Positions 1,205 through 32,251 are shown, counted from the first letter of the stretch. The stretch is 32,251 bases of DNA from Actinobacteria bacterium UBA7524 (GCA_002478275.1 DLMY01000017.1:1-32251); one strand, 5' to 3'. Notes: generated by a model not told the origin, from the sequence alone. Numbers and translations: made by a program.

Positions 1205-1235
1205 TCAAGCCCGCCTTCGTGCGTGCGCGACATAG

Positions 1236-10151: not shown

Positions 10152-10188
10152 TGAGGTGTCAGCAAGTCGCGATGAAGGGAGCACCACA

Positions 10189-10659: not shown

Positions 10660-10670
10660 AAAGCGCACCA

Positions 10671-10702
10671 CTTGGGGGTCGGGTTCGCGCCCGGCCCCCA
10701 AG
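10671..10702 (+). terminator. Terminator-like hairpin after radC
   Basis: CTTGGGGGTCGGGT-TCGC-GCCCGGCCCCCAAG stem. Confidence 0.65.
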
Positions 10703-11335: not shown

Positions 11336-11356
11336 CGGATGGAAGGGTGCCCTGTC

Positions 11357-13323: not shown

Positions 13324-13407
13324 AAGAACACTCCCGGAAAGGTAGTGCCAATGGCTGCCCGGTACGCTCAAGTGGGCGCTGTCCGCGAATCGATGAAGGA
13401 GACACGA

Positions 13408-14208
13408 ATGCAGAGAACGACCCGGAGGATCGCAATCGCCTCGCAGAAGGGCGGCGTCGGGAAGACGACCACGGCGTGGAACGTCGCGGCAGGGCTCACC
13501 GCCAAGGGACGCGACGTACTCGTCGTGGATCTCGACGGCCAGTGCCACCTGACCACCGGCGTGCTCGGCGCACCGCCAGCGCGAAGCCTGTGGGACGTGT
13601 TGATGGGCAGCATGATCGCCGAAGAGGCCATCGTGCCAGGCCCGGAGTTCGCGCTGCTACCCGCCTCCGAGATGCTGTCTCGCGCCGACTACGATCTCGG
13701 CGGCCGGCCGGGACGGGACTTCCTTCTCTCCCGCGCTCTGAAGGGCCGGCGCGATCCGGGGAGCGGCACACGGGCGCCGGGTGTGCAGGACGACTACGAC
13801 TACATCATCCTGGACTGCCCGCCGTCTCTCGGCATCATGACCGCCAACGCGCTCGCCTACGCCAGCGAGGTCATCGTCCCGGTCACCCCGGGGCTCTTCG
13901 CCGTCAGTGGGCTTGGGATGCTGGGCTCCGTCATCGCTGAGACGATCGACGCCGGCGTCAACGAGGACCTGGGAATCGCCGGCATCCTGCTCACTCAGTA
14001 CGAGGGTGGTACGGGTCTGCACCGCAGTATCGCGTCAGCCGTCGAGGAGCAGTTCCCCGGGCTGCTCTATCCGCTCGCGATCCGCAAGAACGTAGCGATC
14101 GGCGAAGCGCACGCCGAGGGCCGAAGCGTGCTGTCCTACGCGCCGAAGAGTCACGGCGCGGCCGACTACACCGAACTCGTCGAGCATCTGATCAGGCAGG
14201 AGGGTTAG
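13408..14208 (+). CDS. parA: ParA/Soj family partition ATPase
   Basis: SQKGGVGKTT, VDLDGQ, YDYIILDCPPSLG, IRKNVAIGEA; AAGGAG RBS before ATG 13408. Confidence 0.95.
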   Translation: MQRTTRRIAIASQKGGVGKTTTAWNVAAGLTAKGRDVLVVDLDGQCHLTTGVLGAPPARSLWDVLMGSMIAEEAIVPGPEFALLPASEMLSRADYDLGGRPGRDFLLSRALKGRRDPGSGTRAPGVQDDYDYIILDCPPSLGIMTANALAYASEVIVPVTPGLFAVSGLGMLGSVIAETIDAGVNEDLGIAGILLTQYEGGTGLHRSIASAVEEQFPGLLYPLAIRKNVAIGEAHAEGRSVLSYAPKSHGAADYTELVEHLIRQEG

Positions 14209-14210
14209 GC

Positions 14211-15164
14211 ATGGGGCGTCCGAGGATCGAGCGCGGTGCGAAGCAGGGCGACGTGATCAGGGATCGCGTGGCGGCCGTGGCCGCACGCTCCGCACGGCCA
14301 ACCAGTCTGCTCGGCCAGAAGACAGACAGGTCGGTGACCGTGCCCCTCGACCAGCTCCACCCGGATCCGCGCAACAACGAGGTGTTCGAGCTCGGAGGCA
14401 TCGAGGATCTGGCGCGCGATATCGAGGCCAACGGACTGGCCCACTACCCCGTCGTGCGTCCCCATCCCGAGTTCGAGGACGAGTACATGATCGTGGCTGG
14501 CCATCGCCGTCATGCGGCGCTCTCGCTGCTCGTCGAGCAGGGTCATGGTGGGCGCTTCGGGCAAGTGGTCTGCCACCTCGTGCCCTCCGATGAGCTGGAC
14601 TCTGGCGTGCTCATGCTCACCACCAACGTTCGGCAGCGCGACCTCTCCACACTGGAACGCATCCACACGATCGCCTTTGCCCAGAGACTCGTTGCTGAGC
14701 TTCGTGGAGCGGGGCGTCTGGAGGCGGGGACGACGACGGACGGCAAGATCGCCGAACTCGTCAACCTCGCGCCACGCACTGTCGCTTACTACCGTTCGCT
14801 GACCAAGCTCATCGAGGGACTTCGCGCCTTGCTCGATGAGCGGCGTATCACGTTCACGACGGCACGAGAGCTCGCACAGCAGCCCATCGATGTCCAGGAA
14901 CGCGTCCTGGCACAGATCGAGGCGGGGGAAGACGGCGCACTGAGTGGCGCGCAGGTGACCGCATTGACGGAGTCGGCGAGGACTAAGGAGCCGACCCCCG
15001 CCAAGGTTCCCGACGCCGAGAAGCTCATCACCGCGCTGGAACGTGCCGCCGAGAGGGTCTCGAGCCTGGAGCGGACCACGCCAGATGAAATCAGCACGTT
15101 CGCGCCGCGCATTGCCGCCGTGGCCGAACTCCTGGACACCATCGCCGCCAAGAGAGGGGTCTAG
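14211..15164 (+). CDS. parB: ParB/RepB/Spo0J family partition protein
   Basis: 'VPLDQLHPDPRN...IEDLARDIEANGL...YMIVAGHRRHAA...NVRQRDLS' plus HTH; directly after parA. Confidence 0.92.
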   Translation: MGRPRIERGAKQGDVIRDRVAAVAARSARPTSLLGQKTDRSVTVPLDQLHPDPRNNEVFELGGIEDLARDIEANGLAHYPVVRPHPEFEDEYMIVAGHRRHAALSLLVEQGHGGRFGQVVCHLVPSDELDSGVLMLTTNVRQRDLSTLERIHTIAFAQRLVAELRGAGRLEAGTTTDGKIAELVNLAPRTVAYYRSLTKLIEGLRALLDERRITFTTARELAQQPIDVQERVLAQIEAGEDGALSGAQVTALTESARTKEPTPAKVPDAEKLITALERAAERVSSLERTTPDEISTFAPRIAAVAELLDTIAAKRGV

Positions 15165-15168
15165 CACC

Positions 15169-16257
15169 ATGGCTGAAGCATGGATTATCACCTGCGACGA
15201 ACGCCGGGCCGGAGCGCTCACGACCGGTGTGTCCGAGGCAGGCGTCGTACTCGCCGGAACGACCATCGCCAATGTGGACACGCTGAAGGACGCGGGCGGC
15301 ACTGCGGCAAACGCCGGGGTAAGCGTGCTCGTCCTCGATGCCGCGAGCAGTCCCTCAGAGGCCGCGGTGCGCTCGACGATCGCCGCGGTGCGGCTCGTGC
15401 GCGGCGATGCGGTGCGCATTGTGCTCGTCGTTGACAAGTTCACGCGTCCCGGTGAACCTCTCGTCGTCTCAGCGCTGAACGACGGAGTCAGAGACATCGT
15501 TGCCTCGGCGCCGAGCGAGCTTGCAGCCACGCTCGCGATGGTGCTCTCGACCGAGACCAGCTACGCCGACGCGATGCGTTGGCGAGGCGAGGACGCACCG
15601 GCTCCAGCTAAGAGCGGCTTCATGTGGCCCACGGCATCGGCCAAGCCGCAGGTGGTGGAGCGCGTCGTGGAGGTCGAACGCGTCAAGTGGGTCGGAACGC
15701 CGGTCGTGACCGTCGCCGGAGCACAGCACCGTGTGGGAACGACGCATCTCGCGCTGTCTCTCGGCCGTGTGCTGCAGGCGCGAGGGCTGCGAGCGGCCGT
15801 GATCGTGCCGACTGTCACGCTGGCGGCGCTCGGGGATACCTACGAGCTCGATTTCGAGGGACTGGGCCGGGGGCAGCGCGCCGACTTCGACGGACTGACG
15901 CTCGCGAGCGATGTCACACCGGGGGATCTGACCGGTGCCGAGATCGTCGTGTGGGACACCGGCGTCTACGCGGACTCTGCGCACATCTTCAAGCTCGGAG
16001 CGGTGCGCTGCCTGGTGTTCGGCGGTTGTGAGTGGGAGCTCGGTGCAATAAGCGAGATCGTCAGCAGCGAGCCTGAGGACGTGATCGCCGACTTCACCTA
16101 CTGCGTGACGCTTGCGACCGAGGAAGACTTCGCGCTGTGTGTCGAGGATCTGGCGGGCTTGTCGTGCGTGCAGATCGCCTTCCCGAGTGACTGGAAGGAC
16201 GGGACCGCGCGCGCTGACCTCGCTGCGATCGTCTCCGCGATCGGGCGGGAGGACTAG
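15169..16257 (+). CDS. Receiver-like domain plus degenerate MinD/CpaE-like P-loop protein
   Basis: N-terminal alpha/beta receiver-like pattern ('VLVLDA...ALNDGVRDIV'); 'VVTVAGAQHRVGTTHLALSLG' deviant Walker A lacking Lys; 'IVVWDTG'. Confidence 0.6.
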   Translation: MAEAWIITCDERRAGALTTGVSEAGVVLAGTTIANVDTLKDAGGTAANAGVSVLVLDAASSPSEAAVRSTIAAVRLVRGDAVRIVLVVDKFTRPGEPLVVSALNDGVRDIVASAPSELAATLAMVLSTETSYADAMRWRGEDAPAPAKSGFMWPTASAKPQVVERVVEVERVKWVGTPVVTVAGAQHRVGTTHLALSLGRVLQARGLRAAVIVPTVTLAALGDTYELDFEGLGRGQRADFDGLTLASDVTPGDLTGAEIVVWDTGVYADSAHIFKLGAVRCLVFGGCEWELGAISEIVSSEPEDVIADFTYCVTLATEEDFALCVEDLAGLSCVQIAFPSDWKDGTARADLAAIVSAIGRED

Positions 16258-18305: not shown

Positions 18306-21248
18306 ATGCACACACGGACACTCACCACGCGCGTGCTCCTCATCCTCGCGCTGCTCTGTGGGTCGGCGGTCGCTTTGCCCGGTACGGCTTCGGCGGCCAC
18401 CGTCTCGACGGGCGGCGCGGGGACGTCGTACTACGACGCCTACTACTCGGGCTCATGGCACGATCTCCAGACGCCGCCGCACACGGTTGACGGGCAGGTC
18501 GCATACTGTCTCGAGCAGGCGAAGGACTTCCCCCTCAACAACTCGACGTACGGCCTGTTCGACCCGGCCGCGCTCTACAACTTCAATACCTACGTTGGTT
18601 TGCAGTCCATTCTTCACCGGGGGTATCCGTACGTGACCCCGGCCGGCCTGACCGAGACCCAGGCGCGCTACGCTACCGCGAACGCCATCCGTGCGTGGAT
18701 GCGCGAGGCGGCCGGCGTCGGCTACACGTTCATGGACATGAGCACCTACACGCAGGACGCTGCGACATGGTCGCGGTTGCGGCCGGCTCCGGGGCTCGGT
18801 GGATCCGAGCAGATGTTTCGCTGGACGATTGACCTCGTGACTGGCGCGCGCAACCGCGTACTCCCGGCCCGGAGCGTGAGCGCCGCGGCCGTCACGCTCC
18901 GACCGAACGCGGACTACACGCGGCTTGTCGGCCAGACGACGGTGTCGTTCAACGACCTCAACGGCTATTACACCGTCGCTGTGCCCGCCGGGGTCACCGT
19001 CACGGGCTACTCGAGCCATGCCGGAGACGTGCTCACCGTCTCCGTGCCTTGCAGCGCAGCCTGGATTGGCCGCTCGGTCTCGCTCACTCTCTACGGGTAC
19101 GACAGTCGTGTTCCAGCGAACATCTTCTACTACGCCCCTGGTGACACGTCGTACCAGCGGGTCGTATCTGCCCAGGCTTCGAGCTTCCAGGTCTCTGCTT
19201 CGGCCGCAGTTCCCGTTGGCTCCGGCTCGGGTGCTTTACGAATCACCAAGACCGATGTGGTCGACGGCGCACCACTGGGCGGCGCTGTCTTCGAGATCCT
19301 CTGGAACAGCACCGTCGTCGCTTCGGGCACGACGGACGCTGCGGGGGATCTCACGTTCACCGGGCTTGCTCCTGGCACCTGGACGGTCAGGGAACAGACC
19401 GCTCCGCAGGGCTACCTGCTCGACGTGACGCCGCATTCAGTCACGGTGCCCGATGGCGGCACCGCCACGCTCGAGCTCACCAACGAACGCGCCTTGCGGC
19501 CTGTGCGCGTCACCAAGACCGACTCGCTCACGGGCGCGGCCCTCGGGGGGGCCGCCTTCGAGATCCGCCAGGGCGTCACCGTCGTGGAGACGCTTACCAC
19601 GGGCGCTGACGGCACGGTGACGTCGGCACCCCTTCCCTTTGGTGACTACACGCTTGTTGAGACCGTGGCGCCGGCGAACCACATGCTCGACGCCACACCG
19701 TATCCGTTCACGATCAACGCAATCTCACCCGTCGTGATACAGATAGCGCGGACCGACCAGCCCTATCGCCCGATCACGCTCACTAAGACCGACGAGCTCA
19801 CAGGGGCGGTCCTTGAAAGGGCCGTCTTCGAGATCCGCCAGGGCGTCAGCGTCACGGAGACGCTCACCACCGGTGCTGACGGCACGGCGACGTCGGCACC
19901 CCTTCCCTTCGGCGACTACGAGCTCGTGGAAGTGACAGCGCCGACAGGCTATGTTCTCGATACCGTCGTGACCACATTCACCGTCGATGCGGCTTCATCT
20001 GCGGCCTTCGAGTTCACACGCACCGATTCGCGCGTGCGCGGCACTGTGCGGCTGGAGAAGCGCTCGGACGGGCAAGACGCACGGCTTCTCCCGGGTGCGG
20101 TCTACGAGATCTGGCGCGTGCGCGATACATCGCCGCTTGCAGCACCGTTCGATCCGGCCGAGGACCCGACGGATCCGGTCGCCACTCTCACGACCGACGC
20201 TCAGGGCGTTGCGCGATCCGAACCGCTCGAGTACGGCTGCTATTACGCGATAGAGACGACCGCGCCCGTGGGTCACGCACTCAATCCCACGCGGCACTAC
20301 TTCGAGATCCGCGAGGACGAGGCCCTCATCTCCCTTGATCTCACCGACGAGGTTCTGCCGGTGAACCACGGCGGGGTGATGCTGCGCTACCGGAACATCT
20401 GGGATGGCACGGAGATCGCCAAAGCGTGGGGCTACAACGCTGAGATTGGCACCGAGTACATGCCGCGTGTCCGGGCCGAAGGTCTCGACAAGATGCCTAT
20501 CGAGGGCTTCTCGTACGTGACAGCCGACTACGCACCCTATGCCGAGCTCGTCGACGGCAAGCTGCTGGTCACGTACTGGTACCGGCAGACCGTCTCCGGC
20601 GACTGGCTCAAGGTCCGCACCGGCGACGACGGCCGAGCACGGCTCACGGCGCAAGACCGCGAGACCTACGGACTGCTCTCGAATGCCGAGCTCTACTCGC
20701 GACTCCTTGAGGCGAAGGTCGCGAACCCGGATGTGATCGGCTACCTCTCGATACCTGGCACCGACCTCCATGAGCCGGTGGTGCAGACGACGGACAACGT
20801 CACCTACCTCACACACGAAGCAGACGGCGATGCCGACGCGCGAGGAGCGATCTTCGCCGACTACCGCTCGCCGCGCTATGCTGGCGACAGCTCGCACGCG
20901 ACGCTGCTCCACGGCCACAACATGCGGGACGGCTCGATGTTCGGCGTTCTCGCCTCCTATGGGGACGCGGACTTCTGGGCGGCGCACCCCTTCATCCAGT
21001 ACGTGGATGCCGCCGGCAACGGCGGGACGTGGCTCGTCTACTCGGCGCGTGTGGCCGATGGCTCCGACGATGCGTTTGCGTTCCCGGTCACGCGGCCGTA
21101 TGCGGATCGCATTGCGCGATGGGCGGATCGCTCGTTCCTGGATCCCGGCTTCCGGCCGGATCCCGCCGGACGTACGCTCACGCTTTCCACGTGCGCGTAT
21201 CACGTTGAGGACGGGAAGTTGCTGGTGCATGCGGCGCTGATCGACTAG
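18306..21248 (+). CDS. Adhesin-sortase fusion: thioester domain + 4 SpaA/Cna-B isopeptide domains + MucBP-like domain + class B sortase
   Basis: Signal peptide; 'VAYCLEQ' thioester motif; four 'K.D...L.GA.FEI...TT...G...L..G.Y...E..AP.GY.L' units; 'VMLRYR...IEGFSYV...VTYWY' MucBP-like; SrtB motifs 'IGYLSIPGT..EPVVQ..DN..YL', 'GAIFAD', 'HGHNMRDGSMFG', 'LTLSTC'. Confidence 0.85.
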   Translation: MHTRTLTTRVLLILALLCGSAVALPGTASAATVSTGGAGTSYYDAYYSGSWHDLQTPPHTVDGQVAYCLEQAKDFPLNNSTYGLFDPAALYNFNTYVGLQSILHRGYPYVTPAGLTETQARYATANAIRAWMREAAGVGYTFMDMSTYTQDAATWSRLRPAPGLGGSEQMFRWTIDLVTGARNRVLPARSVSAAAVTLRPNADYTRLVGQTTVSFNDLNGYYTVAVPAGVTVTGYSSHAGDVLTVSVPCSAAWIGRSVSLTLYGYDSRVPANIFYYAPGDTSYQRVVSAQASSFQVSASAAVPVGSGSGALRITKTDVVDGAPLGGAVFEILWNSTVVASGTTDAAGDLTFTGLAPGTWTVREQTAPQGYLLDVTPHSVTVPDGGTATLELTNERALRPVRVTKTDSLTGAALGGAAFEIRQGVTVVETLTTGADGTVTSAPLPFGDYTLVETVAPANHMLDATPYPFTINAISPVVIQIARTDQPYRPITLTKTDELTGAVLERAVFEIRQGVSVTETLTTGADGTATSAPLPFGDYELVEVTAPTGYVLDTVVTTFTVDAASSAAFEFTRTDSRVRGTVRLEKRSDGQDARLLPGAVYEIWRVRDTSPLAAPFDPAEDPTDPVATLTTDAQGVARSEPLEYGCYYAIETTAPVGHALNPTRHYFEIREDEALISLDLTDEVLPVNHGGVMLRYRNIWDGTEIAKAWGYNAEIGTEYMPRVRAEGLDKMPIEGFSYVTADYAPYAELVDGKLLVTYWYRQTVSGDWLKVRTGDDGRARLTAQDRETYGLLSNAELYSRLLEAKVANPDVIGYLSIPGTDLHEPVVQTTDNVTYLTHEADGDADARGAIFADYRSPRYAGDSSHATLLHGHNMRDGSMFGVLASYGDADFWAAHPFIQYVDAAGNGGTWLVYSARVADGSDDAFAFPVTRPYADRIARWADRSFLDPGFRPDPAGRTLTLSTCAYHVEDGKLLVHAALID
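19512..19970 (+). repeat. 270-bp-period direct repeat (recently duplicated SpaA domain)
   Basis: TTCGAGATCCGCCAGGGCGTCA and GACGTCGGCACCCCTTCCCTT are each present twice, 270 bp apart. Confidence 0.8.
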
Positions 21249-21379: not shown

Positions 21380-22597
21380 CTACTCCCATCGCTTCAGAGC
21401 TCTCAGGGCCTCGGTCAAGTCCTCTGCCACGACGAGCCGATCGGTCTCAAGCCACTCGTCTAGCCCTAGAAGGTCGTGATTCCATGGTTGGCTGACGAGG
21501 ATTGCGCGACCGTCTCCTTTCGCCAAGAAGTCAGCGATATTCGACGGGTAGTCGTCGACCAGGTAGTCAAGCTCCGCGAGCGACTTCTTCCCAGGGAAGA
21601 CATGGAGAAGGCAGTCGTAGGAGTTCAGGCCGTGCCAAGTCAACCAGTGCTTCGTGAGCTCATTGGTTGACTCAGGTCGCGCCGTGACGATTAGAACGCG
21701 ATGCCGACCGGCTACACCGTTTATCAGCGAAGCAGCGCCAGGTCGTACCGGCATGCTGAGAATGTAGTCCTTGTGACCCAGCGCCTCTTCGATTTCCGTC
21801 TTGATGTCATGCTCGTCATCAAGCTTGCAGTCCCATGCCGTGATATCGCTCGCCCTCAGAACGAGTCCGTACTTCAGTCGAACGCGTTCCAGCACGCCGG
21901 CTATCTGATCTGCGAGGACGCCGTCAATGTCGATTCCGACGGTGCTTCGCCGCCGCCGCTGGTTCTTCTTCAGAGCCTTCTCGAGAGGGCGCACAAACAG
22001 CCGGTAGAGGACCATCAGTGCTAGCGCGGCGGACAGGAAGACACCATTCTTGCCCGGTGTGCTGGGCGCTGTGGCGCCGTACGCCGCGGCGAGCAGCGTG
22101 AAGCTGATGAAGCCGATGCCCAGTGAGATCAGGCCGCTCGCCCGAGGGCCAAACACCATCTTGCGCAGCACACCGGCCACCGTGTAAGCAACGAACACCA
22201 AGGCCAATGTCTCAAGATAGGGAAGGACTGTCGCTGACGGGTTCACAGCGATGCCTGGGACCAGTAGAGCGAGGCGGGCATAGAGCGCCACGATGCACAG
22301 GTCCACCACGATCCGCAGGTACTCACGGGCGACGGGCCACCAGGTGAGTGGACTGTTGTGCACAACATCGGAATCACGAGAGAGCAGGTAAGGGTTTGCG
22401 GAGGTGGTGCGATGCCAGTCGATCCAGCTCAGAACGGCTGTGATGAAGACCCCCAGCAGGGCCATGCTCGCAACCGGAGATTGGCTTGGCTGGAGGAATA
22501 CATCCTTGTTGGTCACCAATCCGTCCCCGAGAACCACAGCAAACAACACCTGCACCATGGTGACCATCTGCTGCGAGAGTGCTTCATCTCGGTTCAT
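21380..22597 (-). CDS. Multi-pass membrane protein fused to HAD-family 5'(3')-nucleotidase (NT5C-like)
   Basis: About 6 hydrophobic helices at the N-terminus; HAD motifs DIDGVLAD, IVTAR, K, LVDD and 'QPWN'; GGGGGA RBS. Confidence 0.8.
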   Translation of the reverse strand: MNRDEALSQQMVTMVQVLFAVVLGDGLVTNKDVFLQPSQSPVASMALLGVFITAVLSWIDWHRTTSANPYLLSRDSDVVHNSPLTWWPVAREYLRIVVDLCIVALYARLALLVPGIAVNPSATVLPYLETLALVFVAYTVAGVLRKMVFGPRASGLISLGIGFISFTLLAAAYGATAPSTPGKNGVFLSAALALMVLYRLFVRPLEKALKKNQRRRRSTVGIDIDGVLADQIAGVLERVRLKYGLVLRASDITAWDCKLDDEHDIKTEIEEALGHKDYILSMPVRPGAASLINGVAGRHRVLIVTARPESTNELTKHWLTWHGLNSYDCLLHVFPGKKSLAELDYLVDDYPSNIADFLAKGDGRAILVSQPWNHDLLGLDEWLETDRLVVAEDLTEALRALKRWE

Positions 22598-23107
22598 GTG
22601 ATTCCCCCGACTCCCGTCGCTGGTTCACTCCGAATGATGCCACTTGCTGACGCGCCGTGGCGCTTCGGGCTGTCCCGGTCGGATCCCCCGCCCGCAGACC
22701 AGACGATACGCGTGGAGGGCCCGACCGGAGCTTGAACTCGCACTCGTGAGAATCATCGGCTGGTACAACCCATCGCAAGCGCCGCTCGCGCATGGTGATC
22801 AGGCGGCCGGCGCCGTTCCAGGCACTCGAGCGATACAATCAAGAAGTCGCCACGCCATCTCCGGCATCCAAATGAACGAGCCGGCGTGAAGCCACGGGCG
22901 TTCCATGTCGCCGGGTTGGTCAGTCAACGCGGCATTTGAGCCGGTCGCGTTGTCAGACGCGACCTCTAGCATTGTTCTGACAGTGTCTGCTTTAGCGGTC
23001 GGTCGCAGATCGGTGAGGCCATCTCGGCCTCGTCGCGGTTGCCGCGACACTGGTACTGTCACAAGTGACCAATAGGCAGCAACCTAGACCACGGGGGATC
23101 AGGCCGT

Positions 23108-24223
23108 ATGCTTGATGATCGCAAGATGCACGAGGAGACCGCGTCAATAGCCGAGACGGGTCATCTCGAAGACAACGTAGTTGCCGATGCCATCTCGCAC
23201 GAGTCTCTGGGAGAGGCAGAGGGCGACCCGCAACTGGCATTCCGCACCGCGCTCGGGCGTGCGTTCAAGGGCGATTCCGCAATCGCACTGCCGAGGCTCG
23301 TGGCCCCCGAATCCGTGGACTTGATCATGACGAGTCCGCCGTTTGGGCTGGTTCGCAAGAAGCAATACGGGAACGTCGATGCTGATGACTACACCGACTG
23401 GTTCAGGGACTTTGCGGAGGCATTTACCAAGGTTCTGAAGCCGACCGGCAGCTTGGTAATCGATCTCGGAGGAGCCTGGAATCGCGGTCAACCGACCCGA
23501 AGCCTGTATCACTTCGAAGTGATGATCATGTTGTGCCGTGAGTACGGGTTTCACCTGGCCCAGGAGTTCTACTGGTGGAATCCAGCCAAGCTGCCATCGC
23601 CCGCGCAGTGGGTCACGATTAAGCGGACGAGAGTCAAAGATGCGGTCAACTGCATTTGGTGGCTCTCGAAGTCTCCCAATCCGAAGGCATCGAACCTGCG
23701 GGTCTTGCAGCCCTATTCGTCAAGCATGCGCAGCCTGCTCAAGAACGGCTATCAATCGGGGACGCGACCCAGCGGACATGTGATTTCCGATAGGTTCGGG
23801 ACCGACCATGGCGGAGCGATTCCGCCCAACCTGCTCGCGCTCGCGAACACGGAGAGTAACGGCGCGTACCAGCGCTACTGTCGGCAGAACGGACTCATCG
23901 AGCACCCTGCGCGCTTTCCGGTGGGCATACCTGAGTTCTTCGTACGGATGCTGACCGACAAAGGTGACCTGGTGGTTGACCCGTTCGCTGGTAGCTGCGT
24001 CACCGGCGAGGCCGCCGAGGCACTTGGCAGACGGTGGGTTGGCATCGAGCTTCGCGAGGACTACCTATCCGGGGCAAAGGGGCGCTTTCCATCGCTAGAT
24101 GACCCCACTACAGTCGCACCTCCTGTTCGTCGCAGGTCGGAGCCGTACCTGGCCTTCCCGCCGAACGTCTTGGCTGAGGATCTCGATCGGCGTGCGGAAG
24201 AAGCTGGCGATGAACATGCGTGA
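23108..24223 (+). CDS. Beta-class amino DNA methyltransferase (N4-cytosine type, M.PvuII-like)
   Basis: Motif IV 'VDLIMTSPPF' precedes 'HPARFP' and motif I 'VVDPFAGSCVTG'. Confidence 0.92.
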   Translation: MLDDRKMHEETASIAETGHLEDNVVADAISHESLGEAEGDPQLAFRTALGRAFKGDSAIALPRLVAPESVDLIMTSPPFGLVRKKQYGNVDADDYTDWFRDFAEAFTKVLKPTGSLVIDLGGAWNRGQPTRSLYHFEVMIMLCREYGFHLAQEFYWWNPAKLPSPAQWVTIKRTRVKDAVNCIWWLSKSPNPKASNLRVLQPYSSSMRSLLKNGYQSGTRPSGHVISDRFGTDHGGAIPPNLLALANTESNGAYQRYCRQNGLIEHPARFPVGIPEFFVRMLTDKGDLVVDPFAGSCVTGEAAEALGRRWVGIELREDYLSGAKGRFPSLDDPTTVAPPVRRRSEPYLAFPPNVLAEDLDRRAEEAGDEHA

Positions 24224-24737
24224 TGGCTGTGCAAAGGTCAACGGGGCCTTCCTCGCTGCCCTGGGGGACAGTGTTCTCAGCCACGGTGCAACTAGCTCGA
24301 AGCCACTGGAGGTAGACCTCGCGCCTCCACTCCCGCATAGAATCCGTGCGTATCTGTACCGGGTCACCGGTCCGCCGGGTGGTCGCACGCCGGGGGAGCA
24401 CAAGATCCAGCTGATTCTCCCCGGTCAGGATCGAGGAGCCAGGGCTTCGCTGGACTACTCGGGCGGGCGGATTGTCATATTGGGAGGTCTGCAAGCTGAC
24501 CTGGGGGTATTCGTCCTCTGGGACTCGGCCAAGTACGTCGACTTCTCCTATTCCCGCAACGTGCAGGTGCGCCTCGAGACGATTCTGGCCGCGCTCGGCG
24601 GCGGGATCGCGACCCAAACGCGCTCAATCCGTGGACAGGGGCGTGAAACGGTGATTGCGTGCGTGCCGGACATGCTTCCGCAGGCGCTGCAGATGCGCCT
24701 GGATCTGACCGCTGACGGCCTGGGTCAATCATCATGA
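24210..24737 (+). CDS. Methylase-associated X1 (MTaX1)-like protein, stand-alone
   Basis: 'RAYLYRVTGPPGGRTPGEHKIQLILPG...ILGG...VFVLWD...FSYSRNVQV' is recalled as the MTaX1 pattern; overlaps both neighbouring genes. Confidence 0.55.
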   Translation: MNMRDGCAKVNGAFLAALGDSVLSHGATSSKPLEVDLAPPLPHRIRAYLYRVTGPPGGRTPGEHKIQLILPGQDRGARASLDYSGGRIVILGGLQADLGVFVLWDSAKYVDFSYSRNVQVRLETILAALGGGIATQTRSIRGQGRETVIACVPDMLPQALQMRLDLTADGLGQSS

Positions 24738-26833
24738 GCGAGCCATTGAAGGCCTTGTCGCTCGCGACCTCCTATCACAAGGGCGAGAACGATATCGCGG
24801 CTGAGTTCTACCTTCCGTGCATGCGGAATGCTGTCTCATACGACCGCGCAGTGGGCTTCTTCAGCAGTAGCATCTATGTCTTGGCATGGCCAGAACTCGT
24901 GGGCTTCGTCGAGCGTCGAGGAAAGATGCGCATTGTCTGTTCGCCGATCCTGTCTCCTGACGATGTCGAAGCCATACGCTTGGGCTGTGGCGCCGAGGTT
25001 GAGGCGCGGATAGACCAGCAGATCGCAAGGGAGATTCGGTCGCTAGCTGCCGATGAAGTCCTCGGGAAGCCGACGCGCGTACTCGCGACTCTAGTCCAGA
25101 TCGGTGTCGTCGAGATAAGGCTGGCCTTCATGACGAACACGACTCCCGCGCACGCACGCATATTCCATGACAAGCTCGGTATATTCGCCGACCCCGATGG
25201 AAACGCCGTCGCATTCCGTGGTTCGATGAACGAGACGTGGTCCGGCCTCTCGTTCGATGGAAACCTAGAGTCCGTAGACGTCTACTTGGGCTGGGATGAA
25301 GGCAGGGATGCGGAGCGTGTGAGAACGGAGACCGCGTACTTTGAGCGGCTCTGGGAGAACGACTACCCAGGCGTCCAAGTGCGACGCTTTCCCGATATCA
25401 GCGCGGAAGAACTGAGTGCCTACTCGGATCGGTCTGCCTGGCCGGAGTGGGTCAAGGAGATCCAGGAAGGCGTCGAAGCGGCACCGCGCACGCCCGGCGG
25501 ACGTGTTCCTCGCAAGCATCAATTGGATGCTCTGGCGGCGTGGGAGGAGCGCGGCAGACGCGGGATTCTCAAGCACGCTACAGGCAGCGGGAAGACGTTC
25601 ACCGCATTGCTGGCGATCCGAGATTCGCTCCTTCGTGGGGAATCCGTTCTCGTCCTCGTTCCAAGCCGGCTCCTGTTGCGGCAGTGGTACAAGGAAATCG
25701 CCGAGACCCTGGAAGACTTGCGCCCAAAGATACTCAGGTGTGGAGACGGCCACGACGAATGGCGCACGAAGCACCTCCTGAGCTCTTGGACGTCCCCAGA
25801 GGCGAGAGACTCAATCGTTCTGTCCACGCTGGGGTCCGCCGCCACGGAGCAGTTCTTGAGTTCCGTGCGGCAAGGAGACCATCTCATGGTCGTTGCCGAT
25901 GAGGTGCACAGGCTAGGCAGCTTGGGCAACCGCGCGATCTTCAGTCTACAGACGGGGGCGAGGCTCGGGTTGAGCGCAACTCCCGAACGCTTCCGCGATG
26001 AAGAGGGCACCGCGGCTATCTTCACGTACTTCGACGGGTTGATTCCCGTGCCCTTTACTTTGAGGGACGGCATCCATTGTGGAGCGCTCGTTCCCTATTT
26101 CTACTACCCGAGGACTGTAGCGCTCGCGGAGGACGAGCAAGAATCCTGGGACGCTGCTACCGCGCAGATCCGTCAGCTGGTCGCTCGCCGGGAACAGGAA
26201 GGTGCTGATCGAGCCAGTCTCGAGCGTCAGCTTCAAGAGCTCTGGATACGACGAGCGCGGATCATCAAGAGAGCCAGAGGGAAGGTGGCTCTCGCGGTTG
26301 CGACCCTGTCGGAGGAATACGAGGATGGACAGAAGTGGCTCGTCTACTGCGAGGACTCGACGCAGCTGACCGAAGTTCTTGACGCCATCCGGGCGGCCGG
26401 AATCCGCGCGCATGAGTACCACACCCAGATGCCGGGGGACCGAGACCAAACGATGGTGTACTTCAGCGAGTTCGGTGGAGTCCTGGTCGCGATAAAGTGC
26501 CTGGACGAGGGTGTTGATATACCGGATGTGACTCACGCCCTGATACTGGCCTCGTCGAAGAACCCCAGGGAATTCATACAGCGGCGAGGCAGGGTACTTC
26601 GGAAGGCGCCCGGGAAGCACTTGGCCTTCGTGTACGATCCAGTCGTAACGCCGTGCATTGGGGATGAGGGGGAACCTGATCCAGGCATCGTCGTGGGGGA
26701 GATGGGTCGCGCAATCGAGTTCGCACGTGACGCCGAGAACCCGTCGGCAGCATCGGACCTCGAACGGATCGCGGGTCGTTACGGAGTTGATTGGGCGGAC
26801 TTCGTTGAGGAGGGCATTGAAGATGAGAGCTAG
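24734..26833 (+). CDS. PLD-like (HKD) nuclease domain fused to SF2 DEAD/DEAH (ResIII-like) helicase
   Basis: 'IFHDKLGIFAD...FRGSMNET' PLD motif; ATGSGKT, DEVH, LSATP, LDEGVDIP, IQRRGRVLR. Confidence 0.9.
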   Translation: MSEPLKALSLATSYHKGENDIAAEFYLPCMRNAVSYDRAVGFFSSSIYVLAWPELVGFVERRGKMRIVCSPILSPDDVEAIRLGCGAEVEARIDQQIAREIRSLAADEVLGKPTRVLATLVQIGVVEIRLAFMTNTTPAHARIFHDKLGIFADPDGNAVAFRGSMNETWSGLSFDGNLESVDVYLGWDEGRDAERVRTETAYFERLWENDYPGVQVRRFPDISAEELSAYSDRSAWPEWVKEIQEGVEAAPRTPGGRVPRKHQLDALAAWEERGRRGILKHATGSGKTFTALLAIRDSLLRGESVLVLVPSRLLLRQWYKEIAETLEDLRPKILRCGDGHDEWRTKHLLSSWTSPEARDSIVLSTLGSAATEQFLSSVRQGDHLMVVADEVHRLGSLGNRAIFSLQTGARLGLSATPERFRDEEGTAAIFTYFDGLIPVPFTLRDGIHCGALVPYFYYPRTVALAEDEQESWDAATAQIRQLVARREQEGADRASLERQLQELWIRRARIIKRARGKVALAVATLSEEYEDGQKWLVYCEDSTQLTEVLDAIRAAGIRAHEYHTQMPGDRDQTMVYFSEFGGVLVAIKCLDEGVDIPDVTHALILASSKNPREFIQRRGRVLRKAPGKHLAFVYDPVVTPCIGDEGEPDPGIVVGEMGRAIEFARDAENPSAASDLERIAGRYGVDWADFVEEGIEDES

Positions 26834-27014
26834 CCTGGAAGAGCTTCTCAAGACCATCGAAGGCCTTCGCAGCGAGAAGCAGTCTGAGATTCGCGCGGAC
26901 CTGGTGGTGTCCATCGTGGAGACCGAGTCGACATTCGTCGATCGTCGAGCCGATGCAGTGAAGTCGATTTCGGATCTGCTCGATGAGAGCCTAGAGACCG
27001 GGGGGGCTGAATAG
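26823..27014 (+). CDS. Small helical protein (63 aa) between helicase and SMC ATPase
   Basis: GAGGAGGG upstream; overlaps the helicase stop; ends 1 nt before the next start. Confidence 0.7.
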   Translation: MRASLEELLKTIEGLRSEKQSEIRADLVVSIVETESTFVDRRADAVKSISDLLDESLETGGAE

Positions 27015-27015
27015 C

Positions 27016-28983
27016 GTGCTCAGACTGCACAGGCTCGAGGTGGAGGATTTCGGCCCGTTCCGAGGCAAGCAGGAGATCTGCTTCCCGCGCGACGCTGGAG
27101 TCACGGTGATCCGCGGCGAGAATATGCACGGGAAGACGTCAGTGCTCAACGCGTTGCGGTTCGCCCTCTTCGGCAAGGTGCTGGGACGAGGATCGAGGCC
27201 TATCCCGATCCACCAGCTCATCAACTGGGCGACTGCAGAAGAGGGGAACCACCGACTCTCGGTCTCGCTGGAGTTCGCCTTCGAAGATGAGGAATATGAG
27301 CTTCGGCGTCGACTCAAACCGAGGTCGGGAGTGGGGATCCCGGCGGGCGAGGCTGACTACGAGACACTCGTGACGCTCACCCGTGGTGGGGTGGTGCTGT
27401 CACCAGAACAGACTGAGCGCGAGATGGCTCGCATCATGCCTCTAGAGATCGCCCGGTTCTTCCTGTTCGACGGGGAGCTCCTTCAGGAGTACGAGGACCT
27501 ACTGCTTGAAGAGACGAGCGCCGGCTTCGAGATCAAGCGAGCGATCGAGCGGATCCTGGGGCTTCCTGTACTCACGAACGCCAGACGCGATCTCGAGACA
27601 GTTGTCAACGACGTCGGAAAGCAGGAGTCCAAAGAGGCTCAGAAGGACGCCAAGACACAGCAAATCGGAAGTGCGCTCCAGGCGCTGCAGGAAAGCCGAA
27701 AGCACCACGAGCGTGAGGTCACTCGTCTACAGGGCGAGGAAGACGGGCTGAAGGCTGAGGAATCGGAGCTCAACCTCTACCTGAATCCCCAAGAAGCGGT
27801 CAGGGCGCTCATAGAGAAGAAGGCCGTCCTCAAGTCCGACATGGGACGGCTGCGTAACGAGCGCGCCCAGAACGTCGAAGACCTCCGCGGAATGCTCTCA
27901 GATGCATGGCGCTGGGTTGCCGGTCCGATCCTGGAGGAACGCGCGCACACCCTGCGGAGTCAGATTGACATCCTCGAAGGCGAAATCGAGCACGCTCGCG
28001 TGTCGACTCAGGCTGACCTCATGCGATCCAGCAGCCTTGCGGCGGAGGAGTGCACGCTTTGCGGCCAGCACCTCGACGCCGGAGCCAAGCAGCACCTGTC
28101 CTCCATGATCGAGGATCTGGACGATGACATCGCGTTGAAGAAGGAGTCCGTAGCTGCTCTGCAGCGCAAGGCTGTGCTGCTGGAAGCGCTTCAGCCGGAC
28201 ACCCCAGCCTCCGAGGCCAGACGGATCATGGAGGCCAACCGGAAGATCGACGTGAACTACCAGACCATGAAGGATGACCTGGCCGATGTTGACGAGGACT
28301 TGGCCGCCTTCGATGAGAAGTCGATTGCGAGCGCGATTGAGCGGCTCAAGAGAATCGTCCAGGAGCTTCAGACAGTGCAGAAGGCGAAGCGTGATGAGCG
28401 CGAGGCCGCCGAGAAGGACACTCAGAACATCCGTGGCCTGCAAGACAAGCTGGACAAGATCGGCAGTATCTCTCTCGAGAGACTACGCAGGAAGCGCCTC
28501 TTGGCTGAGAGCCTCAAGCGTCTCTTCGGAGACTCGGTCGATGTCTACCGGAGTCTCCTCCAGGTGCGAGTGGAGAAGGACGCCACCGACCTGTTCCTGA
28601 AGCTCACCACGGAACGCGAGTACGGGGCTCTGTCCATCAACGACAAGTACGGCCTGAGCATCATCCATAGCGACGGCACGCCTGTCACGGTGAGATCAGC
28701 GGGAGCCGAACACATTGTCGCTCTCTCACTGATGGGCGCGCTCCAGAAGAACGCGCCACTCAAGGGCCCGATCGTAATGGACTCTCCATTTGGTCGCTTG
28801 GACGAACAACATACGAACAACGTAATCGCCGCGCTTCCGGTCATGGCAGAGCAGACGGTCCTGCTCGTCTACGAGAAGGAAGTAGATATCGATAGCGCGA
28901 GGGCTATCCTCGCAGGTCGAATTCGCGCCGAGTATCTGCTGCGTCGCGTCTCTGCCAAAGAGACGCGAATCGAGAAGGCCTAG
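27016..28983 (+). CDS. DndD/Rad50-like SMC ABC-ATPase with zinc hook
   Basis: Walker A GENMHGKTS, 'FFLFDGE', coiled coils, CTLC hook, signature RSAGAE, Walker B/D-loop 'IVMDSPFGRLD'. Confidence 0.9.
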   Translation: MLRLHRLEVEDFGPFRGKQEICFPRDAGVTVIRGENMHGKTSVLNALRFALFGKVLGRGSRPIPIHQLINWATAEEGNHRLSVSLEFAFEDEEYELRRRLKPRSGVGIPAGEADYETLVTLTRGGVVLSPEQTEREMARIMPLEIARFFLFDGELLQEYEDLLLEETSAGFEIKRAIERILGLPVLTNARRDLETVVNDVGKQESKEAQKDAKTQQIGSALQALQESRKHHEREVTRLQGEEDGLKAEESELNLYLNPQEAVRALIEKKAVLKSDMGRLRNERAQNVEDLRGMLSDAWRWVAGPILEERAHTLRSQIDILEGEIEHARVSTQADLMRSSSLAAEECTLCGQHLDAGAKQHLSSMIEDLDDDIALKKESVAALQRKAVLLEALQPDTPASEARRIMEANRKIDVNYQTMKDDLADVDEDLAAFDEKSIASAIERLKRIVQELQTVQKAKRDEREAAEKDTQNIRGLQDKLDKIGSISLERLRRKRLLAESLKRLFGDSVDVYRSLLQVRVEKDATDLFLKLTTEREYGALSINDKYGLSIIHSDGTPVTVRSAGAEHIVALSLMGALQKNAPLKGPIVMDSPFGRLDEQHTNNVIAALPVMAEQTVLLVYEKEVDIDSARAILAGRIRAEYLLRRVSAKETRIEKA

Positions 28984-28992
28984 GGAGGTCAC

Positions 28993-29376
28993 ATGGCGCT
29001 GGACAAGAAGACGGTGGGGCTCTCAGCAGACGCTCAGCTGGCTGTCGACACCATCATGGAGACGGGCATGTTTAGGGATCAGATGGACGTGGCGAAGCTG
29101 GGTCTCGCCCTTGCGATTGCGCGGAGACTCCCTCCGACCGAAATGGCAGGCGTCCCCACCAAGTGGAATGTAGGTAGTTTCGATCAGGACGGACAGGTTC
29201 GGAACTCCGTGCTAGCACTGTACTCCGACTACCAGACGCCCTACCGGATAGCCGAGTCGCTGATGAATCAAGGGGTTCCAATGCTCCTTGAGTACATCGA
29301 TGGATCGGGGGACTTGGATCTTGAGGGTCTGCTGGATGAGGCCACTGCGTCCGTTGGGGACGCCTCTCCGGCGTGA
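28993..29376 (+). CDS. Small protein, tentatively DndE-like (RHH-like N-terminus)
   Basis: GGAGG RBS; 'VGLSADAQLAVDTI...MDVAKLGLALAI' pattern, 127 aa, directly after the DndD-like gene. The family call is inference. Confidence 0.6.
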   Translation: MALDKKTVGLSADAQLAVDTIMETGMFRDQMDVAKLGLALAIARRLPPTEMAGVPTKWNVGSFDQDGQVRNSVLALYSDYQTPYRIAESLMNQGVPMLLEYIDGSGDLDLEGLLDEATASVGDASPA

Positions 29377-29554
29377 TACACCAGTGTAGACATGCACCGG
29401 GGGCGGTGTCCTTACGATAGAGCGCCATTGATTCCCGACTTGCGCTGAGGCGCAGCCCGCCGTGGCCGCGCCGGTCGGCGAGGAGGGCGTTCGGGTTCCT
29501 CACCCGAAGGTCGGACTCTGCCCAAGCACGGGGCTCGCGCATACGCACGCATTG

Positions 29555-30663
29555 TCACTGCGTACCCACGTCGAGCTTCGCCGCATCCCACTCCGGCCGC
29601 CGGATCGACGCGATCGCTGATCTCCTCGCGGAGAGATCCGAGATCTTCACGACATCGCCCGTGCGCGGCGCATGGACGTACTTGCCGCCACCGATGTACA
29701 TGCCGACGTGATGGACGTGTCCCGCCTCCCAGAAGATCATGTCGCCGGGCTGGATCTGCGACAGGCTGACGCTTGAGCCGAGGGTGTTCCACATTGAGGA
29801 TGTCGTGCCGCGAGCGGTGAAGCTCGTGTAGCGCCACATGATCCAGTCCGCGAGACCGGAACAGTCGAAAGTGTCTGGGCCGGTTGCCCCCCAGACGTAC
29901 GGACAGCCGAGGACGGACAGGGCGAGCCGCACCGGCGGGAAGTTGACCGCGACGCCTGACTTGTCGAGCTCGCCCAGCACCTCAGGGGTGAGTGCCGTCG
30001 CACCGGGGCCACCGGCCCCGTTGAGCCCGGAGGCATCCAGCACCTGCCCGCTTTCATCGAACGTGCCCAGGATCGCGAGGTAGCGCTCGGCTGCCTGACC
30101 GGCCTCCGCGCCTGTGAACGCCGCGCCAGCCGGCGCGAGCCTCGGCGCAAGGTCCGCGACCGGTGGGTACGTGCTCGTGGCGAGCACCGTGCTCGTGCCC
30201 TCGGCCGTGTACGTGTAGGCGATCGAAGAGCGCACGAGGTCGTAGACGGCGTTGGGGTCAGCCTTCGTGAAGTCCTGATCGCACTGGACGGCCGACAGCG
30301 CCAGGAGATAGCGCCACGTTGGCAGGTCGAGATTGGCGTTCACCGTCTTGCCGGCGGGCGCTCCGGCAACGGCGTCATCGATAGCGTCGTTCTGCAGGCG
30401 GTTCTCAAGCTCGGCATACGTCTTGATCTGCGCCGCGATCGCTGCCGGATCTGTCTGGTGCCCGAACAGGAAGGANNNNNNNNNNNNNNNNNNNNNNNNN
30501 NNNNNNNNNNNNNNNNNNNNCCGGCGAACGCCGTGCCCATGAAGAGCGCCGCCACCAGCGCGATCCCCGCACCAACAAGAACCTTGCGCTCGATGGATTT
30601 CTTGTCGACGACTCCGCGCACGGCGGCTGCAGCGATACGCGCGATCGTCAGGGGTTCGGCCAC
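29555..30663 (-). CDS. NlpC/P60 peptidoglycan hydrolase of the conjugation module (N-terminal TM; spans N gap)
   Basis: 'LGCPYVWGATGPDTFDCSGL...QPGDMIFW...HHVGMYIGGGKYVHAP'; N-terminus 'MAEPLTIARIAA...' follows a GAGGAGG RBS. Confidence 0.88.
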
Positions 30664-30865
30664 GATGCCTCCTCTNNNNNNNNNNNNNNNNNNNNNNNNN
30701 NNNNNNNNNNNNNNNNNNNNNNNNNNNNNNNNNNNNNNNNNNNNNNNNNNNNNNNNNNNNNNNNNNNNNNNNNNNNNNNNNNNNNNNNNNNNNNNNNNNN
30801 NNNNNNNNNNNNNNNNNNNNNNNNNNNNNNNNNNNNNNNNNNNNGGTTCGGCCACGATGCCTCCT

Positions 30866-32251
30866 CTACGCCGTCGGCGTCTTCTCGCTGCTCGTCGACA
30901 GCAGCTGCACCATCTTGGGCGTGCGTTTCACATCGAGGATGCACTTGCGCTGGCCCACCATGAGCAGGCAGCGGCCGACCGCCTTGCGCGCCACGGCGTC
31001 GGCCTCGGCACGCGAGAGGTCGTAGAGATCCACGATGTGTGCGAGCTCGCGGCCATCGGCGCCGAAGATGACCTTCGTGCTTGCGTTGTCGAGCACCGCT
31101 CGGCCCTGCCGTTCGATCGCGGGGTCGAGAAAGTCGCTCACGTTCTGCGTGGCGACCATGAGCGCGCCGCCGTACTTGCGGATCCGCTTGGCGAAGTTCT
31201 TGATCGCCTCGAGAGTCGCTGGCGTCTTGGGGTCGATCGCCAGGTGCGCCTCGTCCATGACGACGAGAAGATGCTCGCCGGTGTCGCGGTTAGCCTGGAT
31301 CTCGCGCCACATCAGCTGCGTGATGAGGTGGTACTGCGCAGCGTACGTGGACGAGTCGGCCTCCTGGAGCGAGTGCGTGGAGAAGACGAGCACGTCGCTA
31401 CCGAGAGTGACGTTCGTCTGTCCGTCCCACATCAGCCCCCGCGAGCCCTCGGTGAGGTTCTTGAAGAACAGATGGAGCCCCGCGTACGCCTCACGCTCGC
31501 CGGCCGACGGCTCGGTCGCAGCGTGCACGCGCGAGGCGATCTGGGTGCGCAGATCCGAGAGCGTCGGCCACGCCGTCATGTGACTCACGCTCGTGAGGTC
31601 CAGAGTCAGGCCGTGAGCCCGGTACAGCTCACGGACCTCGATCTCGAGGATCTCGCGCGCAGTGTAGTCGTCCGGNNNNNNNNNNNNNNNNNNNNNNNNN
31701 NNNNNNNNNNNNNNNNNNNNNNNNNNNNNNNNNNNNNNNNNNNNNNNNNNNNNNNNNNNNNNNNNNNNNNNNNNNNNNNNNNNNNNNNNNNNNNNNNNNN
31801 NNNNNNNNNNNNNNNNNNNNNNNNNNNNNNNNNNNNNNNNNNNNNNNNNNNNNNNNNNNNNNNNNNNNNNNNNNNNNNNNNNNNNNNNNNNNNNNNNNNN
31901 NNNNNNNNNNNNNNNNNNNTCGGCCTCTTCCTCGTCGTCGGCCACGGCCTCTGTGGCCCAGACCTCGAGCGGGTTGATGACCGTCGCGCCGCTGTTGCCC
32001 GCGTCGATCCACTGGCCGTCGATCCGGGCCGATAGCGCCCGGTACTCGTCCTCCGGGTCGATGATGATGACCTTCGTGCCGGCCATGTGCTCCATGAGGA
32101 TGTCGAGCTTCATGAACGTCGACTTGCCGCCGCCGGCGTTGCCGAGCACCACCATGTTCGCGTTGGAGCGATCGGCGAAGCCCAACGAGCCAAACCGCCA
32201 GCGATCGATCACGACGACACCGCCGGTGGTGTCGAGCCCGTAGACCTTGCC
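30866..32251 (-). CDS. virB4: VirB4/ConE-like type IV secretion ATPase, 5'-truncated by window edge (spans N gap)
   Basis: 'NANMVVLGNAGGGKS', 'IIIDPEDEY', 'INPLE', 'LVVMDEAH', 'KRIRKYGGALMVATQ'. Confidence 0.92.
   Translation of the reverse strand, partial: GKVYGLDTTGGVVVIDRWRFGSLGFADRSNANMVVLGNAGGGKSTFMKLDILMEHMAGTKVIIIDPEDEYRALSARIDGQWIDAGNSGATVINPLEVWATEAVADDEEEAXXXXXXXXXXXXXXXXXXXXXXXXXXXXXXXXXXXXXXXXXXXXXXXXXXXXXXXXXXXXXXXXXXXXXXXXXXXXXXXXXXPDDYTAREILEIEVRELYRAHGLTLDLTSVSHMTAWPTLSDLRTQIASRVHAATEPSAGEREAYAGLHLFFKNLTEGSRGLMWDGQTNVTLGSDVLVFSTHSLQEADSSTYAAQYHLITQLMWREIQANRDTGEHLLVVMDEAHLAIDPKTPATLEAIKNFAKRIRKYGGALMVATQNVSDFLDPAIERQGRAVLDNASTKVIFGADGRELAHIVDLYDLSRAEADAVARKAVGRCLLMVGQRKCILDVKRTPKMVQLLSTSSEKTPTA

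Follow-up and report, generated by a model that had tools for sequence, protein, structure and literature searches.

The closest described relatives of the locus analysed here are the PbeABCD defence systems. In the haloarchaeon Haloterrigena jeotgali A29, the dndCDEA-pbeABCD cluster protects against a virus (Xiong 2019, PMC6459918). According to the portions of that report available to us, all four pbe genes were needed, pbeA only partly, a phosphorothioate (PT)-modified virus escaped, and viral DNA was not visibly degraded. The same portions count 553 pbeAC pairs, 320 of them without dndCD within 10 kb and 155 of those 320 beside methylase genes; the authors speculate there that Pbe may pair with methylation, and that solitary Pbe is possibly inactive. 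A comparative-genomics paper (NAR 2024, PMC10853773), as far as its accessible text goes, describes PbeA as a helicase of superfamily 2 (SF2) with an HKD domain, PbeB as a disordered small protein, PbeC as a CxC ATPase and PbeD as a DndE cognate, and includes a form with a methylase and MTaX1 (its Fig. 4A iv), found by comparative genomics and credited there to Krishnan 2020. It proposes that non-self DNA is restricted, PT or methylation serving as the mark, or else that the system mounts a suicide response which the small protein regulates negatively. Here we describe an operon on a contig of Actinobacteria bacterium UBA7524 (DLMY01000017.1; 32,251 bp, analysed in its entirety and called the window below) which, at positions 23108-29376 of the plus strand, very probably encodes a methylase-linked PbeABCD system.

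Six co-oriented open reading frames (ORFs) with overlapping or nearly abutting ends were all recovered where a first-pass annotation of this DNA had placed them (Table 1). The methyltransferase (MTase) and MTaX1 genes overlap by 8-14 nucleotides (nt), depending on the ATG chosen, an ATGA is common to the end of MTaX1 and the start of PbeA, and the 11-nt overlap of PbeA and PbeB is preceded by a GAGGAGG. The two remaining gaps measure 1 nt (PbeB/PbeC) and 9 nt (PbeC/PbeD, with GGGAGG inside). None of the six genes is disrupted, and they are translationally coupled. We assign genes 3-6 to PbeA, PbeB, PbeC and PbeD because of the full-length PADLOC matches of PbeA and PbeC, the DndE fold predicted for the last protein, and the gene order. 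The operon, in other terms a CxC ABC-ATPase/DndE system, is a new example of an already catalogued kind, not a new system.

The system of Fig. 4A iv in PMC10853773 has the same six components, in the order seen in related loci and with no PT genes, and nothing essential in the accessible part of that paper sets it apart; its published description is purely computational, and the copy here lies on a conjugative element in a Gram-positive-type genome. The H. jeotgali cluster, in what is available of its description, has the same helicase PbeA, a PbeB of ~66 amino acids (aa), a DndD-like PbeC and a small PbeD; however, its self mark is the phosphorothioate made by DndCDEA, and here a methylase and MTaX1 stand in that place. 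Of the adjacent dndCDEA needed for the PT-based form, the PAPS-reductase-like DndC (PF01507, TIGR03183) had no match among the window ORFs or in the host assembly (1.81 Mb, 60 contigs, 83% complete), which agrees with the earlier statement that dndC is absent.

The gene-by-gene reading of the first-pass annotation (N4-cytosine methylase, MTaX1, phospholipase D-type helicase, small protein, zinc-hook DndD-like ATPase, DndE-like protein) is borne out by PADLOC, Pfam and fold matches, and its hedge that the set might be an ABC-ATPase modification system predicted by computation was correct, such a system being drawn in Fig. 4A iv of PMC10853773. The novelty that it implied does not stand: the block from helicase to DndE is PbeABCD, with full-length PADLOC matches, and the form with methylase and MTaX1 is already in the accessible text of the same paper. 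It had further staked its proposal on there being no full match to a characterised system; PbeABCD is indeed matched, while the methylase-linked subtype is described only in silico.

PbeA is matched by the PADLOC PbeA model (PDLC02707, 1.2e-204) over residues 5-673 of 699. Its N-terminal HKD (phospholipase-D-type) region is recognised by NF042964 (PLD anti-phage, 1.4e-20), and its helicase part by the ResIII and Helicase_C domains of Pfam, with weak matches to HsdR-type models; TIGR04095 also matches (3e-96), under that model's cut-off. Residues H145, K147, G163-S164-M165-N166, GSGKT (284-288) and DEVH (389-392) are invariant across 42 homologues, in which helicase motifs I, II and VI are retained without change along with HxK...GSxN. 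The PADLOC PbeC model (PDLC02747, 2.7e-191) covers PbeC at full length, and the DndD models match it at 5e-45 (PADLOC) and 149.1 bits (TIGR03185, 1.6e-43), the latter below the cut-off of 245.85. Invariant in 30 homologues are its Walker A residues G39-K40-T41, the hook cysteines C346/C349 (CxxC), the signature S561-G563-A564-E565, D589-S590-P591, and the H-loop histidine H599; the stretch MDSPFGRLD contains the Walker B/D-loop (DSPFGRLD), which is likewise invariant. The zinc hook and the DndD likeness noted earlier for this protein hold, but the label "SMC" is imprecise, since PbeC is a Rad50-type CxxC hook ATPase of a DndD sister clade, without an SMC hinge. PMC10853773, in its accessible text, names this clade the CxC ABC ATPases. 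Of the candidates scored as PbeC homologues, 625 reach E <= 1e-10, hundreds of them ~40-45% identical and from many phyla. A sequence search retrieved no solved structure of any Pbe protein, the nearest being XPB helicases (5e-18) and Rad50 (8e-4).

For PbeD, the evidence comes from structure modelling. The Pfam DndE model PF08870 matched 0/52 members of its family, and a sequence profile of the family gave chance-level matches only against PDB sequences. An AlphaFold2 model built from 52 relatives (predicted local distance difference test, pLDDT, 90.4) was compared with solved structures by Foldseek, as had been suggested in the first-pass annotation, and the best 15 rows were all DndE (E 0.06-0.5, template modelling score, TM, 0.5-0.68). 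With VIA-align, DndE structures reached Z 10.8 (7x4e, root-mean-square deviation 3.0 over 105 residues) and 10.1 (4lrv, 5wtu); the next family, represented by the tandem ribbon-helix-helix protein TraY, scored 6.8, and all others less than 3. PbeD is thus predicted to be a DNA-binding protein of the DndE fold.

The first gene of the operon encodes a DNA methylase (PF01555, 3.2e-37; PADLOC MTase_II PDLC03323, 1e-107) whose residues 44-327 match the solved N4-cytosine methylase M.PvuII (PDB 1boo) at E 1.9e-95. The SPPF motif precedes the S-adenosylmethionine (AdoMet) motif DPFAGS, which lies C-terminal to it, in the permuted beta order. As judged from sequence, the enzyme is predicted to be a beta-class circularly permuted DNA methyltransferase with an N4-cytosine product. 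CAGCTG, the PvuII site, is not avoided in the host genome (observed/expected 0.86, rank 20/64 palindromes), a result that carries no information here, as the element probably arrived recently and the operon methylase may recognise another site. The N-to-C motif order, the PF01555 match and the M.PvuII match agree with the circularly permuted N4-cytosine (or C5) methylase that defines the subtype in the accessible part of PMC10853773.

To place the operon among its relatives we used an alignment-based scan of metagenome contigs, which yielded 521 relatives; the best 80 were kept as loci. All of these belong to the window's own subclade, to which the counts given below are confined; they do not describe Pbe systems at large. 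(A single-protein PbeC search of genome contigs gave one weak, irrelevant match.) Synteny was read by tblastn with the six window proteins. MTaX1 was found 6-48 nt upstream of PbeA in 48/48 loci that include the N-terminus of PbeA with over 600 nt of DNA ahead of it, and PbeD 11-60 nt after PbeC in 57/57 loci with room for it; the neighbourhood, whose conservation had been proposed as a check, is conserved in this subclade. The gap between PbeA and PbeC holds an ORF of 59-80 aa, mostly acidic, in 42 of 43 distinct loci. The window's PbeB (15 acidic vs 8 basic residues in 63 aa) was recognised by tblastn in only 20 of the 80 loci, its assignment following from position, size and these matches only, and PbeB evolves fast. 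This copy of the operon is ~40-55% identical to its nearest relatives.

The flanks were scanned with Pfam: 101 upstream ORFs from 36 loci that have 1.5 kb or more of DNA ahead of MTaX1 and that remained after removal of four near-duplicates, and 104 downstream ORFs in 30 loci. Within ~5 kb, 28 of these 36 loci carry a PF01555 methylase, as do 33 of the 45 examined on either side (one, L025, counted from tblastn only), in line with the co-occurrence of methylase and helicase-ATPase block on which the earlier proposal depended. PF01507 (PAPS_reduct, DndC) was found in 0/205 flanking ORFs of the related loci. In these relatives the order MTaX1-PbeA-PbeB-PbeC-PbeD is thus fixed, with a methylase usually adjoining and sulfur-insertion genes never.

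The methylases themselves are diverse. In fifteen loci, as in the window, an SPPF methylase in the same orientation comes just before the block, and one more locus (L014) has a truncated one beside a Mu-type transposase. In ten loci a methylase of 1260-1380 aa, with an N-terminal helix-turn-helix (HTH) domain and double DPPF, replaces the SPPF enzyme, either upstream (L051, L058, L063, L072, L074) or downstream in convergent orientation (L031, L059, L061, L071, L080), and L039 and L070 have two adjacent methylases of 588-712 aa on the opposite strand. Where the SPPF methylase is replaced by the double DPPF enzyme or the methylase is convergent downstream, MTaX1 is still ~47-52% identical to the window's copy. 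On an alphaproteobacterial plasmid, from another phylum, a methylase, a helicase, a "DNA modification system-associated small protein", an ATPase and a 124-aa ORF follow each other without MTaX1 and with an extra sigma-like gene.

We compared pairwise-identity matrices for the window and 14 SPPF loci. MTaX1 co-varies with PbeA at r 0.98 and the MTase with PbeA at r 0.63 (permutation p ~0.001), Mantel values which overstate independence through shared ancestry but whose contrast is still informative. Since the first value so exceeds the second, MTaX1 appears to belong to the restriction side of the system, with the methylase as the more exchangeable partner.

MTaX1 is the sole copy of its family in the host genome (PF20296, 2.8e-19; 70.2 bits vs a cut-off of 25). 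A model built from 43 sequences reached pLDDT 93.4 and found no clear match in Foldseek; the sequence profile gave chance-level matches only against PDB sequences. A wide VIA-align comparison retrieved I-Ssp6803I (Z 8.3), the archaeal Hjc/Hje (7.0-5.2) and RecU-like proteins (5.9), and further down the N-terminal domains of NhoI/Eco15I (~5), DpnI (4.7) and R.PvuII (3.6-4.0). By the tool's own warning a Z near 8 can reflect a common arrangement, yet the list consists consistently of nucleases of one fold, and MTaX1 is accordingly predicted from the model to have a restriction-endonuclease fold of the PD-(D/E)xK type. Its conserved residues are PPGGR..GEHKxQLIxPGQ, with E61-H62-K63 at the start of a strand, D80, W102-D103, Q134 and E144; the upstream acidic residue of the canonical active site was not identified among them.

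Searched against 1.84 billion representatives, the MTaX1 profile gave 494 hits at E <= 1e-3, mostly stand-alone proteins of 165-200 aa. Among 27 longer matches that we scanned, MTaX1 is fused to a McrB-like AAA_5 domain (P0205, P0224), HNH (P0141), NOV_C (P0152), Mrr_N (Mrr_N + MTaX1; P0210, P0270), N6_N4_Mtase (preceding MTaX1; P0198), and HTH or sigma-type domains. Second MTaX1 genes also occur beside Pbe operons: three are fused to HNH_2 (L037:5015-6058, L071:144-1217, L080:4737-5723), one to GmrSD_N (L074:11350-12972), and two have unassigned C-terminal halves (L040:5506-6534, L070:6522-7520). Such fusion partners are typical of modification-dependent nucleases, in keeping with the published suggestion that MTaX1 may tell modified DNA from unmodified.

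The endonuclease-like fold, with its conserved E61-H62-K63 on a strand, and the closeness of the methylase to a type II enzyme could also mean that two separate systems lie side by side: a type II pair of methylase and MTaX1 endonuclease, and a PbeABCD standing alone, which either does nothing without phosphorothioate or responds to some other trigger. Such a division would be consistent with the shifting position and orientation of the methylase among loci, with its co-variation with PbeA of just r 0.63, and with the inactivity of solitary Pbe raised in the available part of PMC6459918. However, MTaX1 is tied to PbeA and not to the methylase, in position (48/48 loci at 6-48 nt, and an ATGA overlap) as well as in sequence (r 0.98). 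It also keeps ~47-52% identity where the methylase is swapped, a change incompatible with a type II endonuclease bound to one sequence, and its upstream catalytic acidic residue was not identified. Two independent systems therefore seem to us quite unlikely.

We instead favour a single machine, and on balance we think it probable that the operon is a methylase-linked PbeABCD defence operon on a conjugative element that acts as an ATP-dependent restriction-modification machine. The M.PvuII-like enzyme would place N4-methylcytosine at its site in host DNA, and a PbeC dimer, with the DndE-like DNA binder PbeD, would load on DNA and scan it. MTaX1 would report the methylation state of the site. 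On unmethylated foreign DNA PbeA would translocate, and its HKD domain would nick or cut, or at least replication would be blocked; the acidic PbeB would serve as an essential regulatory or bridging subunit. The logic put forward in the first-pass annotation (methylation as self, scanning by the ATPase and DndE, cutting by the HKD-helicase) coincides with the in-silico prediction in the accessible text of PMC10853773. For this restriction-modification mechanism taken alone, we see the chances as evenly balanced. Cleavage is putative, because the tested PbeABCD, in the available account, showed no visible degradation of viral DNA and required pbeA only partly.

The same absence of visible degradation in a PT-linked system (PMC6459918, available portions) would be expected if the operon acted by abortive infection, the alternative model of PMC10853773 as far as that paper is accessible. 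PbeB would then restrain the machine until a viral enzyme removed or modified it, whereupon the HKD-helicase would attack the cell's own DNA, with methylation tuning the response and not marking targets. A small, acidic and fast-evolving PbeB (20/80 loci by tblastn vs 42/43 by ORF) would suit such a role. Yet deletion of pbeB ended protection and was not toxic, and the PT-modified virus escaped as for a self/non-self mark, both as given in the available portions of PMC6459918; the presence of a methylase in 33/45 loci likewise fits marking. We consider abortive infection unlikely.

Several observations weigh against the restriction-modification machine that we favour. The one PbeABCD that has been tested depended on phosphorothioate, degraded no viral DNA visibly and needed pbeA partly (PMC6459918, available portions), and the literature that we searched held no experiment on the methylase-linked form. 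As the host genome is 83% complete, a dnd cluster may lie on DNA that is missing from the assembly. Neither PbeB nor PbeD was matched by any model in the Pfam, PADLOC or NCBIfam scans. The part of MTaX1 as reader of the methyl mark is suggested by its modelled fold and its domain fusions only. The methylase varies in family, position and orientation among related loci and co-varies with PbeA much more loosely than MTaX1 does, the shared ancestry behind the Mantel values counting here as well; in 8 of the 36 loci, six of them with little flanking DNA, the available DNA holds no methylase.

Methylase-linked Pbe could be a distinct class of ATP-dependent restriction-modification, in which MTaX1 as methyl-mark reader gates a clamp of zinc-hook ABC ATPase and DndE together with the HKD-helicase, a generalisation that we put forward tentatively and hold to be somewhat doubtful. 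MTaX1 would then play the part of the phosphorothioate-sensing domains in Dnd/Ssp defence, and the copy described here, compact and with all six genes intact, could serve for testing the idea. As a discovery the operon matters little, with PbeA and PbeC in PADLOC and the methylase/MTaX1 form in the accessible text of the 2024 comparative-genomics paper (PMC10853773). Its value is modest: the defence architecture is common, and the family-level results give concrete hypotheses on MTaX1, which rest on its being fixed to PbeA, on its endonuclease-like fold and on its fusion elsewhere to modules of modification-dependent nucleases. The additions of the present analysis are small, namely the endonuclease-fold model of MTaX1, its tight co-variation with PbeA, and its fusions to McrB-, HNH-, GmrSD- and Mrr-type modules.

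Comparison with other known systems sharpens these assignments. With canonical DndABCDE the operon shares PbeC, a sister of DndD, and the DndE fold of PbeD; it differs in the score of PbeC, too low for the DndD cut-off, in the CxxC hook of that protein, a feature that DndD lacks according to the accessible text of PMC10853773, and in that DndA, DndB and DndC were not found. We rejected a Dnd modification system on the DndC missing from the window and the 83%-complete assembly and on the sub-threshold DndD score. With the PvuII type II restriction-modification system it has in common a close homologue of M.PvuII, but no R.PvuII-type partner was identified, and R.PvuII scores far below I-Ssp6803I and Hjc against MTaX1. 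By its endonuclease-like fold MTaX1 could be a cognate endonuclease, although it tracks PbeA and not the methylase family. Like type I and type III restriction enzymes, it combines an SF2 translocase fused to a nuclease with a separate methylase. Here, however, the nuclease is of the HKD and not the PD-(D/E)xK type, a specificity subunit such as HsdS or Mod is lacking, and the system adds an ABC ATPase, a DndE-like protein, MTaX1 and a small protein.

The PADLOC comparison took the best 25 rows per protein, of 34, 80 and 63 families matched. For PbeC these rows were all PbeC or DndD, and models of Hma, Wadjet and Lamassu were absent from the best 25 of every protein. DISARM, BREX and MADS gave only weak generic matches (for the helicase, DrmD at 1.8e-5 and BrxH at 1.2e-8; for the methylase, mad2 at 1.6e-8), all of them much weaker than the Pbe matches, and the earlier judgement that the gene set fits none of DISARM, BREX, Wadjet or Lamassu is upheld over these best rows.

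An integrative conjugative element carries the operon as cargo, and the far end of the element lies beyond the contig. A tyrosine integrase on the minus strand adjoins two tRNA genes, and the other hallmarks comprise RadC, HTH proteins, a weak MobL-like relaxase match, ParA and a weak ParB match, along with an NlpC/P60 hydrolase and a TraG-like ATPase at the contig end (Table 1). PbeC is present in a single copy in the host genome and in 2/146 genomes of the host's order, the host included, the other copy being a 49%-identical fragment at a contig end.

Table 1. Positions of the operon genes and of further features in the window
Feature	Position	Strand	Length and basis
MTase, M.PvuII-like, predicted N4-cytosine	23108..24223	+	371 aa; PF01555, PADLOC MTase_II, 1boo
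MTaX1	24216 (or 24210)..24737	+	173 aa; PF20296
PbeA, HKD + SF2 helicase	24734..26833	+	699 aa; PADLOC PDLC02707
PbeB, acidic small protein	26823..27014	+	63 aa; position and size
PbeC, CxxC zinc-hook Rad50/DndD-like ABC ATPase	27016..28983	+	655 aa; PADLOC PDLC02747
PbeD, predicted DndE-fold (tandem ribbon-helix-helix) DNA-binding protein	28993..29376	+	127 aa; structure model
tRNA-Lys and tRNA-Glu	1129-1311		adjoin tyrosine integrase
Tyrosine integrase	1271-2614		
Other element hallmarks	10123-16257, 29555-32251		
ABC-type ATPase	6504-8684	-	726 aa; weak AAA_21/AAA_15
Thioester, SpaA-type pilin and sortase domains in one ORF	18306-21248	+	980 aa
Protein divergent from operon	21380-22597	-	405 aa; C-terminal half NT5C

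This setting suggests a further explanation, in which the operon is an addiction or exclusion module of the mobile element, killing cells that lose the element or excluding competitors, with phage defence as a secondary effect. Its place inside an element with an integrase by tRNA-Lys/tRNA-Glu, a relaxase-like protein, ParA/ParB, a TraG-like ATPase and pilin and sortase domains agrees with this, as do its patchy distribution in the host's order (2/146 genomes) and the integrases, transposases and relaxases that flank related loci. But related loci also lie among defence genes (an SMODS-bacHORMA-AAA trio, Mrr, GmrSD), and such a role is compatible with a restriction mechanism, being an explanation at a different level. 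As an account in its own right we regard it as very improbable.

Other genes of the window may also be of interest. The 726-aa ABC-type ATPase matches the PADLOC candidate PDC-M49A at 9e-39, with weak matches to mad3 and AriA, which makes it a candidate for another defence gene of this element. In the 405-aa protein, the C-terminal half is a 5'(3')-deoxyribonucleotidase domain (NT5C, 2e-12; phage phrog_420); its N-terminal 210 aa had no match of any kind, and the gene is not conserved beside Pbe in the other loci. The 980-aa ORF carries a sortase domain at its C-terminus, together with a thioester domain and four SpaA-type pilin domains. Separate genes usually encode pilin and sortase; this ORF could be a true fusion, or the product of a missed stop or frameshift.

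A scan for promoters and terminators over 22500-29700 gave nothing useful, and no inverted repeats were found in the operon flanks. Near-identical operon DNA (at least half of the sampled words) is present in 8 public sequencing runs. The matches overall comprise 19 rows from 14 studies, with no RNA runs among those listed; they are environmental metagenomes, with labels that include hydrocarbon, groundwater, wastewater and sludge.

The neighbours of Pbe operons in the related loci include, besides Mrr and GmrSD genes, a CBASS-like trio of SMODS, bacterial HORMA and AAA (L052:10236-12885), and Prok-E2, ThiF, JAB and multiubiquitin genes (L011:11610-13602, L023:13423-15735).

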